A DNA stretch of 64,000 bases from Blastocatellia bacterium. GTDB taxonomy: Bacteria > Acidobacteriota > Blastocatellia > UBA7656. Shown piece by piece: positions 5,144-46,656 of this stretch. Within the stretch, counting starts at the first letter, position 1, and each line of letters opens with the position of its first letter. The stretch is from contig DASRIZ010000305.1 in assembly GCA_035649735.1 (NCBI GenBank), positions 14,998 through 78,997 on the forward strand, given 5' to 3'. Position numbers and translations under genes: made by a program. Under the pieces are notes generated by a model, which had not been told where the DNA came from, ran no database searches, and was given only the letters and a program-made list of their open reading frames with translations.

Positions 5144-6325
5144 TTAAACAAATGAAACGAATACTTCGTTAGAAAGCAAGCGTCCCTCGGGCGTCAGAGT
5201 CAACCGGCCGCCGCCGATCTCTATCAGCCCGGCATCGGTCAGCCGTGGAAGTTCGGCGCCATAGCGCTCGATTACGTCCACGCCATATTCGGTCCTGAAC
5301 TCTGTCAGGCTAACGCCTTCCCTTAGTCGCAACCCCATGAACAAAGCTTCAGCCGCGCGGTCGGCTTCACTCAGTTCGGTACGTTCGGCTATGGCGTTTC
5401 CTGCTTTCGCGATCCTGTCGATGTATGTTTCGGTCTTCAACACATTAAACCATCTGGCGCCTCCATCGTAAGAATGCGCGCCGCAACCGATGCCATAGAA
5501 GGTTTCGCCAGTCCAGTATTTGGAGTTGTGTTTTGATCTGAATTGACTGAACCGTTCAGACGTATTGGGCCCGGCGATCCGAGCAAAGTTGGAGATTTCG
5601 TAGTGCTCATAGTCTGCGGCTTGTGTGGCGGCGCTTATCATCCGGTACATTTCGGCCGTGAGATCATCATCAGGCTCCGGCCGCAGACCGCGTTTTAGTT
5701 GAGCGAAGAGCTGCGTGCCCTCTTTGAGATCCAGCATATAAAGCGACAAGTGCTCGGGCGTTATCATCAGGGCTTCGCGTAGATTGTATTCCCAATCCGC
5801 TAGAGATTGTTCCGGCAAACCGGCGATCAAATCGAGACTTATGTTCTTGAATCCAGAAGCGCGCAAAACGTCGATAGTACTACGCGCTTCGATAGCGCTG
5901 TGGGTGCGGCTAAGTGAAAGCAACTCGCGATCGATAAACGACTGCACACCAACACTCGCGCGATTAATTCCGGCGCTCAACCACTTATCAACTTTTGTGC
6001 CGGCGAGGGTTGCGGGATTCACTTCGATTGTGACTTCGCAGTCAGGCGAAACGTCAAATACCGCGCGACAAGTGGCCAGTAGCTTCTCCAGTTGATCCGC
6101 TTCGACAATCGAAGGGGTGCCGCCACCAAAGTAAATCGTGTCCACCTGAGCGCGGTCACCCGACTGCCGCACCAGGTGCTTTCCCCACCACGTGATCTCA
6201 CGGGCTACTGCGTCGATGTAGCGCGCGGCCAGCTCGTCAAAGAAATCAGTAGTGTTGAAGTTGCAGTACGTACATTTGCGTTCGCAAAAGGGGATGTGTA
6301 TATAAATGCCGGCTTGCTTTTGCAC
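5144..6325 (-). CDS. hemW: Radical SAM heme chaperone HemW / coproporphyrinogen-III oxidase-like
   Basis: IYIHIPFCERKCTYCNF radical-SAM CxxxCxxC motif close to the N-terminus, plus a HemN-like C-domain. The ORF-track start at 6388 translates the heptamer repeat, so I prefer the GTG at 6325 (VQKQAGIYIHIPFC). The start remains uncertain. Confidence 0.85.
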   Translation of the reverse strand: MQKQAGIYIHIPFCERKCTYCNFNTTDFFDELAARYIDAVAREITWWGKHLVRQSGDRAQVDTIYFGGGTPSIVEADQLEKLLATCRAVFDVSPDCEVTIEVNPATLAGTKVDKWLSAGINRASVGVQSFIDRELLSLSRTHSAIEARSTIDVLRASGFKNISLDLIAGLPEQSLADWEYNLREALMITPEHLSLYMLDLKEGTQLFAQLKRGLRPEPDDDLTAEMYRMISAATQAADYEHYEISNFARIAGPNTSERFSQFRSKHNSKYWTGETFYGIGCGAHSYDGGARWFNVLKTETYIDRIAKAGNAIAERTELSEADRAAEALFMGLRLREGVSLTEFRTEYGVDVIERYGAELPRLTDAGLIEIGGGRLTLTPEGRLLSNEVFVSFV

Positions 6326-6337
6326 CAGGCGATTATA

Positions 6338-6587
6338 GCAAAGAGCAAAGGGCAAAGAGCAAAGGGCGAAGAGCAAAGGGCAAGTCATTGGTCATTAGTC
6401 ATTAGTCATTGGTTAGTAGTCATTGGTCGGTTGTCCTAGTGACTACAGTATTAAACTCGCCATTGGCTACCAATGACCAATGACTAATGGCTAATGACCA
6501 ATGACTTCCCCCTTCCCCTTGCTCTTCGCTCTTCGCCCTTTGCGCTTTGCTCTTTGTCTTTACTCTTTGCCCTTGGCCCTTTGCCCT
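6338..6587. repeat. Composite 250-bp foldback built from two heptamer tandem-repeat blocks
   Basis: Left arm: 6 units of GCRAAGR (6338-6379), then 6-7 units of GTYATTR (6384-6432). Right arm: CAATGAC/TAATGAC units (6461-6505), then about 12 YCTTTGC-like units (6506-6587). The arms are reverse-complementary block by block. Confidence 0.9.
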
Positions 6588-6686
6588 GATATTCTTGCTT
6601 CGCAATTCACAGCCCCCCTGATACAAACAATCCTTGCGGTGTATTCTGGAAGAAGCTACTGCTTACTCAAGGGCAAACACGGAGCG

Positions 6687-7652
6687 ATGATGAGCTATCC
6701 TGATAAAATTGCCGGTCAGAGGATCGTGGTTACCGGAGGAGCCGGCTTCGTCGGGTCAAATGTTGTTCGCAGACTGCTGACCGAGAATGCCCGCGTTGTT
6801 GTCCTTGATGACTTCTACACGGGCGACGACAACAACCTCCCAACCGGTGAACCGAACCTCGAGGTAGTTCGTGGCAGCGTGACCGATTACGACCTCGTCC
6901 GCGATGTGACCGCGGGCGCAAGTCTGGTATTTCACCTGGCGGCTCGCAATATAATCGTCTCGACTCGAAATCCAAGAGAAGACTACGAAGTGAATATCGG
7001 CGGCACACTCAATGTGCTGCTGGCGGCGCGGGAATCAAACATACCCAGGGTCGTCTATTCATCTTCAACCTCCGTCTACGGCAATCCGCGCTATCTGCCG
7101 ATCAACGAAGACGACGCAACCAACATGCTGAGCCCATACGCGGTTTCAAAATTCGCCGGTGAGAACTATTGCAAAGCATTTTACGAGAGCTATGGGTTAT
7201 CGTCGGCGGTGGTTCGATACTCGAATGTCTACGGTACCGCGCAGCGTCCAGACAATCCCTACTGTGGTGTGGTCGCAAAATTCTTCGAATCGGCGATGAA
7301 AGGAGAACCGCCGCGAATTCACGGCGATGGCGAACAGACTCGCGACTTTACATATATTGACGACGTTGTGGAAGCCACGCTGCTTGCGGGAATCAGTCCC
7401 AAGGCGGACGGGCAGGTCTACAACGTCGGGACTGGACGCGAGGTAACCGTCAACCAGCTTGCCCGCACGATAATCGAAATAACCGGTGCGAATCTCGAGC
7501 CCGCTTTCGTCGATCGCCGGGACATTGACAACATTCGAAGACGCGTCGTAAACATCGAGAAAATCCGGCGGGAGCTGCGCTGGATCCCGACCTTCACCGT
7601 CGAGCAAGGTCTGCGGCGAACTTATCAATGGCTAAAAGAAACATCCAAGTGA
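6687..7652 (+). CDS. NAD-dependent sugar-nucleotide epimerase/dehydratase (SDR, UDP-glucose 4-epimerase / UDP-glucuronate decarboxylase-like)
   Basis: ORF 6501..7652 trimmed to the ATG at 6687 (GGAG at 6681-6684), because the earlier part translates the repeat. VTGGAGFVGSN Rossmann motif and the YAVSK catalytic YxxxK. Confidence 0.85.
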   Translation: MMSYPDKIAGQRIVVTGGAGFVGSNVVRRLLTENARVVVLDDFYTGDDNNLPTGEPNLEVVRGSVTDYDLVRDVTAGASLVFHLAARNIIVSTRNPREDYEVNIGGTLNVLLAARESNIPRVVYSSSTSVYGNPRYLPINEDDATNMLSPYAVSKFAGENYCKAFYESYGLSSAVVRYSNVYGTAQRPDNPYCGVVAKFFESAMKGEPPRIHGDGEQTRDFTYIDDVVEATLLAGISPKADGQVYNVGTGREVTVNQLARTIIEITGANLEPAFVDRRDIDNIRRRVVNIEKIRRELRWIPTFTVEQGLRRTYQWLKETSK

Positions 7653-8425
7653 ATACCAAGGTGATAGCAGGCGTCACTGATTCAGCTGAAAAGCTCTTGC
7701 GGGGAACCGGCCAGCCACGCGTGTTGTGTGTGGCTCCGGCGTGGAACGAGGGCGAACGTATTGCGCGAGTTGTGCAAGCCGTGCCCGGTGAATTCGTGGA
7801 AACAACTGTAGTGGTGGATGACGGTTCCGGGGATGACACCGCTTTTCACGCTGAGAACAGCGGCGCAATCGTGATTAGCAGCGGCGCGAATCGAGGTGTT
7901 GGCGCCGCGATTCGAAGCGGCATTGATTACGCCATCGCCAACGGTTACGACATCGTGGTAATCGTGTCCGGCGGCGGCAAGACCCCGCCCGAACAAATCC
8001 CAAGGCTGCTTGATCCGATCATAAACGGCGAGGTCGAACTCGCCCAGGGGTCCCGATACCTGGATGGAGGCGAGTATCTGAGGATGCCTTTGCGACGCAG
8101 ACTTGGCACACGCGGCTACACGATCCTGTTTTCGCTATTCTGTCGCCACCGAGTCACCGATGCCTCGAGCGGTTTTCGAGCGATCAGACTCTCACTGTTT
8201 GACGATAAGCGAATAGATCTGTGGCAGGACTGGCTCGATCGATATGAACTCGAGCCTTACTTGCTTTTCAAGGCGCTGCGGCTCGGACACAAAGTTGTGG
8301 AGGTACCGGTGACGATCGAGTATCCAAAGACCGACGGAATTGCTTATACAAAGATGCGGGCGATTACCGATTGGTGGAAGATATTTCGACCCGTGATTTT
8401 CCTTGGGTTAGGGCTGAAACGTTAA
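7628..8425 (+). CDS. Family 2 glycosyltransferase (dolichol-phosphate mannosyltransferase-like)
   Basis: GT2 pattern: VAPAWNEGERI near the N-terminus and VVVDDGSGDDT. Overlaps the epimerase end by 25 nt, so an operon is likely. A later start is possible. Confidence 0.8.
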   Translation: MAKRNIQVNTKVIAGVTDSAEKLLRGTGQPRVLCVAPAWNEGERIARVVQAVPGEFVETTVVVDDGSGDDTAFHAENSGAIVISSGANRGVGAAIRSGIDYAIANGYDIVVIVSGGGKTPPEQIPRLLDPIINGEVELAQGSRYLDGGEYLRMPLRRRLGTRGYTILFSLFCRHRVTDASSGFRAIRLSLFDDKRIDLWQDWLDRYELEPYLLFKALRLGHKVVEVPVTIEYPKTDGIAYTKMRAITDWWKIFRPVIFLGLGLKR

Positions 8426-20160: not shown

Positions 20161-20216
20161 TTCTCTTCTGCCCTTCTGCTTTCTGCCTTCTGCTTTCTGC
20201 CTTCTGCTTTCTGTCA
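20161..20216. repeat. Heptamer tandem repeat (TCTGCTT/TCTGCCT)x~8, no inverted partner seen
   Basis: Read directly between the convergent ddl and pdxJ genes. The units alternate, giving a 14-nt super-period. Confidence 0.85.
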
Positions 20217-29349: not shown

Positions 29350-29430
29350 GGTTTCTGGTTTCTGGTTTCTAGTTTCTGGTTTCTGTCTCAGGATAGTTAA
29401 CCAGAAACCACAAACCAGAAACGAGAAACC
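29350..29430. repeat. Intercistronic hairpin of heptamer repeats: (GGTTTCT)x5 ... (CCAGAAA-like)x4
   Basis: Left arm 29350-29384, right arm 29401-29430. Fills the whole coxM-coxG spacer and abuts the coxM stop codon. Confidence 0.9.
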
Positions 29431-32828: not shown

Positions 32829-32911
32829 CGATTGCCGATTGCCGATTGGCGATTGCCGATTGAAAGAACAAGAGGTTCAGAACTGAATCGGCAATCGACA
32901 ATCGGCAATCG
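32829..32911. repeat. Intercistronic hairpin of heptamer repeats: (CGATTGC)x5 ... (TCGGCAA)x3
   Basis: Left arm 32829-32863, right arm 32888-32911. The loop contains the small palindrome TTCAGAACTGAA. Sits between the coxS stop (32914) and the coxL RBS. Confidence 0.9.
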
Positions 32912-36243: not shown

Positions 36244-36342
36244 TATTTATTATTTTCGATTTTCTATTTACTATTTGCCTTTTCGGCGCGCACGCGCGTC
36301 CAATAAACCAAATGAGCAAATAGCAAATAGCAAATAAAAATG
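36244..36342. repeat. AT-rich heptamer-repeat hairpin (CTATTTA/CTATTTG ... (GCAAATA)x3)
   Basis: Left arm around 36262-36279, right arm 36314-36335, with a GC-rich centre GGCGCGCACGCGCG. Lies in the divergent DUF1844/mazG intergenic region. Confidence 0.7.
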
Positions 36343-39342: not shown

Positions 39343-39452
39343 TTCTTTGCGTCTTTGCGGTCCTTGGCGTCTTTGCGCCGAACTCTGACCTTTCAAATGC
39401 TACGAAATGGAAGGGGCGGGTTCAGCGCAAGGACCGCGAAGACGCAAAGAAG
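39343..39452. repeat. CTTTGCG-family hairpin, copy 1
   Basis: Arms TTCTTTGCGTCTTTGCGGTCCTTGGCGTCTTTGCGC (39343-39378) and GCGCAAGGACCGCGAAGACGCAAAGAAG (39425-39452). Related to the copies at 43131 and 46548. Confidence 0.85.
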
Positions 39453-43130: not shown

Positions 43131-43228
43131 TCTTCTTTGGTCTTGGCGGTCCTTTGCGTCTTTGCGCTAGGCGGTTCATTCGAATGGCTTGTCTCGCGCA
43201 AAGACGCAAAGGACGCCAAGACGCAAAG
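43131..43228. repeat. CTTTGCG-family hairpin, copy 2
   Basis: Arms TCTTCTTTGGTCTTGGCGGTCCTTTGCGTCTTTGCGC (43131-43167) and GCGCAAAGACGCAAAGGACGCCAAGACGCAAAG (43196-43228). Starts at the base after the stop of gene X. Confidence 0.9.
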
Positions 43229-46547: not shown

Positions 46548-46656
46548 GTCTTTCTTCTTTGCGCCTAAGCGGTCCTTTGCGTCTTTGCGCTAACGTAACT
46601 TTCCAATTGCTTATTTAGCGCAAAGACGCAAAGGACCGCTAAGACGCAAAGAAGAC
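46548..46656. repeat. CTTTGCG-family hairpin, copy 3
   Basis: Arms GTCTTTCTTCTTTGCGCCTAAGCGGTCCTTTGCGTCTTTGCGC (46548-46590) and GCGCAAAGACGCAAAGGACCGCTAAGACGCAAAGAAGAC (46618-46656). Lies between argF' and argB. Confidence 0.9.

Follow-up and report, generated by a model that had tools for sequence, protein, structure and literature searches.

The window analysed here is a stretch of 64,000 nucleotides from the genome of a soil acidobacterium of the Blastocatellia (assembly GCA_035649735.1, contig DASRIZ010000305.1, positions 14,998 to 78,997), in which we were interested in a fold-back of heptamer repeats occupying the spacer between a hemW-like gene and a gene for an NAD-dependent epimerase/dehydratase. 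The fold-back spans positions 6337–6587 of the window and consists of an outer and an inner tier, each formed by a pair of inverted tandem arrays. Pfam confirmed the divergent location given in the original prediction, with hemW on the minus strand and the epimerase and a glycosyltransferase of family 2 (GT2) on the plus strand, and this divergent order is conserved in relatives. The locus comprises the following features, in window coordinates:

5144..6325, minus strand: hemW-like radical-SAM gene (Pfam Radical_SAM and HemN_C)
6337–6383: outer left arm, 6.7 units of GCAAAGA/GCAAAGG (GCAAAGR), Tandem Repeats Finder (TRF) consensus AGCAAAG, pairing with 6519–6565
6383–6428: inner left arm, 6.6 units of GTCATTG/GTCATTA (GTCATTR), TRF consensus AGTCATT, pairing with 6469–6505
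6429–6468: apical loop of 40 nt, single-copy in the genome (self-match only by blastn)
6469–6505: inner right arm, 5.3 units of CAATGAC/TAATGAC (YAATGAC), TRF consensus ACCAATG
6506–6518: C-rich degenerate linker TTCCCCCTTCCCC, joining the inner and outer right arms and unpaired in the predicted fold
6519–6586: outer right arm, about 9.6 YCTTTGC-type units (TRF array 6519–6584, consensus TTGCTCT, and ortholog comparison)
6687..7652, plus strand: NAD-dependent epimerase/dehydratase gene (Pfam; orthologs 86–93% identical from residue 1)
7628–8425, plus strand: GT2 glycosyltransferase gene (Pfam), overlapping the 3′ end of the epimerase gene

TRF detected four arrays of period 7, and an inverted-repeat search resolved arms of 42–52 nt with 85–90% complementarity and mirrored block order, in agreement with the predicted anatomy of two heptamer arrays in mirrored arms. 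The arms indeed carry unequal unit numbers (6.7 vs. 9.6 in the outer and 6.6 vs. 5.3 in the inner tier), whereas the earlier count of “about 12” units in the right arm holds only if the degenerate linker is included; TRF gives 9.6. The outer left arm additionally shows a 14-nt super-period, GCAAAGAGCAAAGG, with a 93% match. The order of unit variants is not significantly mirrored between the arms at this locus (p = 0.1 and 0.6), and genome-wide the same comparison gives a modest signal, with 18% of the hairpins at p ≤ 0.05 (124 vs. 46). Folding predictions yielded −145.1 kcal/mol for the plus-strand RNA (z = −18.3), −137.6 kcal/mol for the minus-strand RNA and −84.6 kcal/mol for the DNA (z = −18.5), and none of 200 shuffled sequences folded equally well. 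The 40-nt loop contains no open reading frame (ORF). We also considered a G-quadruplex reading and rejected it: GTCATTR has no G-tract, and GCAAAGG yields GGG every 14 nt, giving three tracts in the left arm.

The heptamer hairpins of this metagenome-assembled genome (MAG) lie at contig ends in 52 of 438 loci, which suggests that such repeats break its short-read assembly, and a chimeric or collapsed repeat would be one explanation of the fold-back. However, an identical epimerase protein is encoded on L121, a 2862-nt contig that was assembled independently from a Joint Genome Institute (JGI) metagenome and that matches window positions 5380–8241 with 99.895% identity, three mismatches and no gaps. 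The fold-back is base-for-base identical in that contig, without any difference in unit count, so the region is unchanged in an independent assembly and is not an artefact of this one. Moreover, the element sits in the interior of a 91-kb contig, and homologous fold-backs occupy the orthologous site in several other assemblies. Taken together, an assembly artefact is extremely unlikely. Among metagenome contigs, no relatives of 85–99% identity were found, the best one reaching 81%.

The longest ORFs of both flanking genes extend into the repeats, and both the JGI gene call and our own gene caller start hemW at an ATG inside the repeat. The epimerase orthologs align from residue 1 (MMSYPDK) at position 6687. 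The HemW orthologs, which share 65–81% identity and all originate from Blastocatellia MAGs, begin at a conserved GTG (window 6325–6323), preceded by an in-frame stop codon just upstream in five of seven cases. Neither set begins with repeat-encoded residues, which settles the check raised in the original prediction. Judged from these alignments, the true start of hemW is the GTG at 6325–6323 and not the ATG at 6388 within the repeats, the repeat-encoded N-terminal extensions are not genuine, and the repeats are untranslated. In practice, gene callers misplace the hemW start into the repeat.

We compared about 30 orthologous spacers (drawn from 17 genomes within the genus and family and from 13 further metagenome loci). 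Two boxes are kept across the genus and family, and the segment between them is hypervariable. The conserved elements at the boundaries of the fold-back are as follows:

6332..6340, minus strand: putative extended −10 box of hemW, TGC-TATAAT, 6 nt before the GTG (ortholog conservation)
6567–6572, plus strand: putative −35-like hexamer of the epimerase gene, TTGCCC, inside the right arm and 17 nt upstream of the −10 box
6587–6595, plus strand: putative extended −10 box of the epimerase operon, TGA-TATTCT (ortholog conservation)
6596..6686, plus strand: epimerase leader of about 91 nt, conserved at the DNA level (TTCACAGCCCCC...; TTCACAGCCCCCAACTACAAGCTAATCCTTGCGG...; by-eye alignment of orthologous spacers)
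6681–6684, plus strand: Shine-Dalgarno sequence GGAG of the epimerase gene

On the hemW side, TGnTATAAT-N6-GTG is found in 16 of the 17 orthologous genome spacers. We infer an extended −10 promoter giving a leaderless mRNA. The TGC of this box belongs to the first GCAAAGA unit of the outer left arm, which would supply the TG of the extended −10 as the only contribution of the array on this side. On the epimerase side, TGn-TATYCT is kept in about 14 of the 17 genome spacers and in additional metagenome loci, preceded at 17–18 nt by TTGCCC in 11 lineages and by TTGCTC in a further two. The epimerase promoter would accordingly read TTGCCC-N17-TGATATYCT. The three promoter-proximal heptamers of the right arm (e.g., TTTGCCC-TTCGCGC-TTTGCGC), which are conserved across the genus, coincide with the −35 box and the spacer of this putative promoter and presumably serve as both, a role that would explain their persistence in relatives that have lost the remainder of the hairpin. 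The earlier expectation that the element contains or flanks both promoters thus fits the comparison, as the fold-back adjoins the putative −10 boxes of both genes and, on the epimerase side, would contribute the −35 box and spacer through the final three units of its right arm. For the conserved epimerase/GT2 leader of about 91 nt, which may be a regulatory 5′ untranslated region, no matching Rfam family was found.

Between the boxes lie 246 nt in the window (6341–6586) and 21–454 nt elsewhere. The arrays stand upstream of both −10 boxes with the −35-like hexamer in phase, so changes in unit number would leave the −35/−10 spacing intact. The proposal that copy number tunes promoter spacing does not fit this arrangement or the wide range of box-to-box distances. 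The same evidence bears on a phase-variable contingency locus, in which slippage of the heptamers would switch or tune one or both promoters. Tandem heptamers are prone to slippage, and unit numbers vary widely between species, the inner left arm having 6.6 units here vs. about 17 in the closest relative. Yet the tract neither lies between the −35 and −10 boxes nor is translated, the distance between the boxes varies among relatives as given above, and its length is equal in two assemblies that differ by three single-nucleotide polymorphisms in 2.9 kb. We therefore regard phase variation as very unlikely.

The position of the fold-back also determines whether it could act as RNA. The element is probably untranscribed, because it lies upstream of both inferred start points, about 6325 on the minus strand and about 6602 on the plus strand, and no co-oriented upstream gene on either strand would allow read-through. 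If transcribed, the hairpin could be processed (e.g., by RNase III), stabilise or terminate a transcript, or act as a small RNA, and the strong predicted RNA fold on both strands invites this reading, as does the typical position of other members of the class in transcribed regions just behind stop codons (see below); gene-bearing relatives of the class resemble the 23S rRNA intervening sequences excised by RNase III (PMC4990558). However, no intrinsic terminator (a GC-rich stem with a T-run 3′ of a gene) was found in 6200–6800, the fold-back being upstream of both genes, and an Rfam search of the fold-back returned generic miRNA-like hairpin matches far below the gathering scores. For an untranscribed element, terminator, stabiliser and processing-site roles fall away, even though they may apply to members behind stop codons. 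The RNA hairpin role suggested earlier is thus highly improbable at this locus.

The orthologous spacers hold a variety of structures in place of the two-tier fold-back:

Two tiers of the same two unit families: this genome (G000) and L122, the closest relative (HemW 81%)
Three tiers, with GCNAAGR outermost, GGGCGAGG 8-mers, and then the inner pair: G011
One GCAAAGR tier: G003 and L124/L128
Decayed arms: G013
Right arm only: G014, G009, L132 and L127
69-residue ORF with a right-arm remnant: G004, G006 and L123
69-residue ORF without a right-arm remnant: G005
DUF2442 gene at the spacer: G012, with only its 3′ remnant in G002
Hairpin of the 9-mer CGCAAAGCT: G001
GGGGCC-type hairpin, in another genus: G015
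No such element: G007, G010 and G017

Between species, the arms lengthen, shorten, decay and vanish independently of each other, and only the three promoter-proximal right-arm units are kept throughout; in L127, they make up the entire 21-nt gap between the boxes. The hairpin itself appears dispensable, because relatives keep the genes and the boxes where it is absent, decayed or replaced. The 69-residue ORF (MVDERRQHLELVAAGL...) is conserved in four relatives of different clades (L002 at about 2560–2770, L007, L123 and L097, the latter corresponding to G006); it has no Pfam match and is absent from this genome.

In a tree of HemW, one clade (support 88/88) unites both two-tier lineages with relatives in the decayed, arm-only or ORF-bearing state. 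The three-tier G011 is sister to this clade (95/86), and the one-tier forms are found in the neighbouring sister clade. The outer array family and the junction CTTTGCGC-TGATAT occur in two sister clades, and by this distribution the outer GCAAAGR/YCTTTGC tier is at least as old as the genus at this locus. The inner GTCATTR tier is common only to this genome and its closest relative, where unit variant, unit count and loop all differ: the inner left arm of L122 consists of about 17 GTCATTT units vs. 6.6 GTCATTR units here, and the loop is unrelated. Its inner right arm has drifted to AAATAGA/AAATAAC with loss of complementarity. Because this arm has decayed to AAATAGA-type units, pairing of the inner arms is evidently not maintained in L122. 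On these grounds, the inner tier is younger than the outer one and probably of a single origin.

These comparisons also bear on a regulatory role at the DNA level, namely a cruciform, extruded under the supercoiling of divergent transcription, that buffers or couples hemW and the epimerase operon. According to the twin-domain model, negative supercoils collect between divergent promoters. The fold-back is placed exactly between two back-to-back promoters, its DNA fold is predicted to be very stable, and throughout the genus an array of some kind has been retained here. On the other hand, the genes and boxes are kept with no hairpin, a single arm or decayed arms (G007, G010, G017, L127, G014 and G013), the inner arms of L122 are no longer complementary, and hairpins in divergent spacers are no commoner than the background throughout the genome (see below). 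A cruciform regulator is accordingly unlikely, although we would still allow it a small chance.

To place the fold-back among other repeats of the genome, we carried out the genome-wide scan for period-7 arrays with inverted partners that the original prediction had proposed. The assembly comprises 8.4 Mb with 55.5% G+C, and TRF returned 4555 rows, including 1375 period-7 arrays with 244 distinct units; periods 14 and 21 are enriched, too. After merging, 483 inverted array pairs collapse into 438 hairpin loci with a median loop of 32 nt. Both tiers of the fold-back fit the definition of this class, i.e., inverted arrays of one 7-nt unit with a short loop. The idea of a special device of this locus is contradicted by these numbers, the fold-back being one of about 438 such hairpins, and by the relatives that keep the genes and boxes without it. 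The densities in five relatives, 0–15 inverted pairs per 80 kb vs. 4.4 here, show that the heptamer-hairpin class is typical of this Blastocatellia family.

Within the class, the arm with more G than C leads in 412 of 473 pairs, and GCAAAGR and GTCATTR are both the 5′ arms in the fold-back. This G-first polarity is intrinsic and independent of gene direction, because the reverse complement of a hairpin again reads the G-rich arm first. The 16 loci of the GTCATTR family have the unit alone in common: their loops are unrelated, their arms differ greatly in length, and the 5′ arm invariably carries the GTCATTG strand. GTCATTR arrays are patchily distributed, being present in 15 of 151 genomes of the class. 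Nesting of two different units was observed at 15 loci, against 4.6 expected for hairpins landing randomly in intergenic DNA (Poisson P = 1e-4), and the junctions between nested tiers are tight, mostly 0–10 nt. At C557:6914–7110, the GCAAAGR and GTCATTR families are nested in the opposite order.

Gene positions for the genome-wide comparison came from our own codon-usage caller (5947 genes, 83% coding), which is crude and unreliable in its start sites. The hairpins in tandem, divergent and convergent spacers number 270, 55 and 49, against a background of 3875, 710 and 698 spacers, and the divergent share amounts to 14.7% of the classifiable hairpins vs. 13.4% of the spacers. Divergent spacers are thus not short of hairpins, nor do convergent spacers have an excess of them. 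Hairpins in tandem spacers start at a median of 4 nt past the stop codon. The copy between hemW and the epimerase gene, by contrast, is not behind a stop codon and adjoins two −10 boxes in a divergent spacer; the post-stop position is typical of the class and not a defining feature, because 55 other loci also lie in divergent spacers.

One family of units could be suspected of a function as binding sites. A GCAAAG core recurs in arrays of periods 7, 8, 9 and 10 in this lineage, e.g., CGCAAAGA in the window, CGCAAAGCT in G001 and CGCAAAGACA in L029, and divergent spacers hold a weak excess of the GCAAAGR family (6 of 18 vs. 49 of 356, p = 0.035 in a single uncorrected test). A protein-binding array, in which a DNA- or RNA-binding protein recognises the GCAAAG core and is recruited by the arrays near promoters, would account for both observations and for the conserved proximal YCTTTGC units beside the epimerase −10 box. 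The conservation of these units is explained more simply by their role as −35 box and spacer, however, and the core is absent from the inner tier as well as from more than 200 other units. As we identified no candidate protein either, we consider such an array distinctly improbable.

Further heptamer repeats in the window comprise the hairpins GGTTTCT/AACCAGA, CGATTGC/AATCGGC and TATTTAC/CAAATAG and one unpaired TTCTGCY array (29350–29430, 32829–32911, 36244–36336 and 20166–20213). Elsewhere in the genome, hairpins of the GGTTTCT/AACCAGA family cluster around tandemly duplicated genes; at C509:6230–26897 and C490:2757–10533, each paralog of about 810 residues is followed by such a hairpin. A separate family consists of 13 elements of about 98 bp with a fixed architecture of 8-mers, TCTTTGCG-TCTTCGCG-GTCCTTTGCG-TCTTTGCGC, followed by a loop of about 30 nt and the mirror image. 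Its sites include window positions 46548–46652, 39344–39452 and 43131–43228 as well as C19:5837, C24:18827, C328:1444 and others. These elements are C-first, belong to the 61 exceptions from the G-first rule, and resemble repetitive extragenic palindromes (REP) or MITEs (miniature inverted-repeat transposable elements) rather than free arrays.

Some inverted heptamer arrays enclose a gene. We searched blindly for inverted arrays of the same unit 260–480 nt apart and assigned the enclosed frames by Pfam. Seven of the eight PF05635 genes in the genome lie between inverted tandem arrays, and one such cassette, C204:45439–46105, has arms of the GTCATTG family, like the inner tier of the fold-back. 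Seven orthologs of the C204 type (62–76% identity) from five genera and two families (L202–L208, in G031, G017, G025, G011, G018, G117 and G046) are all placed directly between inverted heptamer arrays. The units differ by genome (GTCATTG, GTTACTG, AGTCCGT/AGTCAGT and GGTCTTT) and each pair of arms stays complementary, indicating that the cassette arms co-evolve and that the protein does not dictate the unit. PF05635 genes number 4–13 per genome in this family and are missing from 13 of 14 control genomes. Among six genomes, their number shows no trend with hairpin density. A specificity of the protein for a unit was rejected, since 5 of 14 genomes that have GTCATTR arrays carry a C204-type ortholog, as do 2 of 14 genomes lacking these arrays. 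Likewise, gene-enclosing pairs in general could be dismissed, as inverted and direct same-unit pairs are equally common, i.e., at chance level, beyond a gap of 400 nt. The loop of the fold-back contains neither a PF05635 gene nor any trace of a lost one, all eight genes being located elsewhere. An origin of the inner tier from an emptied cassette was discarded as well, because the loop is unlike the interior of the C204 cassette or any other sequence of the genome.

The association nevertheless raises the question of whether the hairpins are built by an active process tied to the Avd-like PF05635 genes instead of by passive slippage. Such a process might extend the two 3′ ends at a break, such as a cut hairpin tip, by templated addition of the G-richer strand before joining them. 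If true, it would cover the G-first polarity, the unequal arms and the unrelated loops, together with the co-evolving arms around the PF05635 orthologs and the emergence of new tiers at old apices, as in this fold-back. We put this forward as a speculative and rather improbable variant.

We consider it likely that the fold-back is a tolerated structural repeat of two generations, whose ends were built into, or grew from, two core promoters. It would be a gene-less member of the genome-wide class of heptamer hairpins, situated in the sole freely varying part of the spacer. New tiers would arise at the apex of existing hairpins, and the arrays would then expand and contract by slippage in steps of 7 nt. 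As the element is presumably transcribed from neither promoter here, its role would be confined to the DNA level, most likely that of a tolerated spacer.

Several points weigh against this interpretation. The promoter assignments rest on conservation, because a simple sigma-70 scan found no canonical −35/−10 pair at this spacer, and the leaderless start and the untranscribed state of the element are read from the same alignments. The HemW tree leaves the sisterhood of this genome and L122 unsettled, so that one origin of the inner tier is parsimonious and not proven. The long persistence of an array at this site, together with the weak excess of GCAAAGR in divergent spacers, could mean promoter-proximal usefulness and not mere tolerance.

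Heptamer-repeat hairpins of cyanobacteria and Xanthomonas have been known for decades and have, to our knowledge, no accepted origin or function. Short tandemly repeated repetitive (STRR) heptamers of cyanobacteria were reportedly described by Mazel et al. in 1990. The canonical STRR units of heterocystous cyanobacteria are presumably CCCCAGT, TTGGTCA and CAACAGT, of which we take TTGGTCA to be STRR2. As stated in the original prediction, GTCATTG is a circular permutation of TTGGTCA, which is true by string logic, and a kinship of the fold-back with heptamer hairpins of the STRR type is reasonable (PMC2670836; PMC4692102). STRR heptamers can form hairpins, e.g., between hupS and hupL (PMC2670836), and they share with the Blastocatellia class the tandem 7-bp units, the intergenic location and the many copies per genome. 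Unlike STRR sequences, the present class belongs to another phylum, has hundreds of units instead of a few, forms nested tiers, and occurs nearly always as inverted pairs of fixed polarity. Moreover, the copy studied here is located between two promoters, whereas the STRR copy lies inside an operon. We found no literature report of heptamer-hairpin elements in Acidobacteria.

The GGGAATC repeats of Xanthomonas form 70–75 convergent inverted pairs, led by the G-rich array and capable of stem-loops (Rehm et al., 2015, PMC4692102), and thus share the pairing and polarity observed here. For the GGGAATC/GGGGAYT repeats of Xanthomonas and Nostoc, a G-quadruplex role was proposed, and 7–9% of them reside between divergent ORFs, where they are under-represented (PMC4692102). 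These repeats resemble our class as genome-wide heptamer arrays near stop codons with variable unit numbers. They differ in having one G-tract unit per genome, whereas the units here are mostly without G-tracts, in being under-represented between divergent ORFs where the present class is found in proportion, and in that no nesting was reported for them. TAACTGA direct repeats, which occur in Beggiatoaceae, Cyanobacteria and Bacteroidetes, were proposed to be binding sites of a translational regulator (MacGregor, 2015, PMC4679880). They are likewise abundant intergenic heptamers with indels in 7-nt steps between strains, a patchy phylogeny and no known mechanism, but they consist of one unit repeated in direct orientation a short distance upstream of start codons, and a single case is inverted.

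PF05635 denotes the Avd-like protein of 23S rRNA intervening sequences (PMC10053308; PMC4990558). The PF05635 cassettes and the ORF-bearing intervening sequences of 23S rRNA have the same arm architecture as the fold-back, the 40-nt loop of which is, however, gene-less and dissimilar to the cassette interior, and which is not placed in an rRNA gene. REP sequences, the bacterial interspersed mosaic elements (BIMEs) built from them, and MITEs are similarly short, intergenic, palindromic and highly repeated; in contrast, copies of the present class share the unit alone, with unrelated loops, free arm lengths and no target-site duplication seen.

The fold-back is therefore set apart from known heptamer repeats by its phylum, the diversity of units, the nesting, the proportional use of divergent spacers and the overlap with two promoters. 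That the class is not confined to the 3′ ends of genes speaks against explaining it by termination or mRNA stabilisation alone. In addition, the locus offers a dated series at a single site, comprising a genus-old outer tier, a younger apical inner tier, and arms that have grown, decayed and been lost independently. It also provides a candidate case of repeat units forming parts of two core promoters, in which, as the comparison of orthologous spacers indicates, the hairpin is dispensable and three of its units persist as putative −35 box and spacer.

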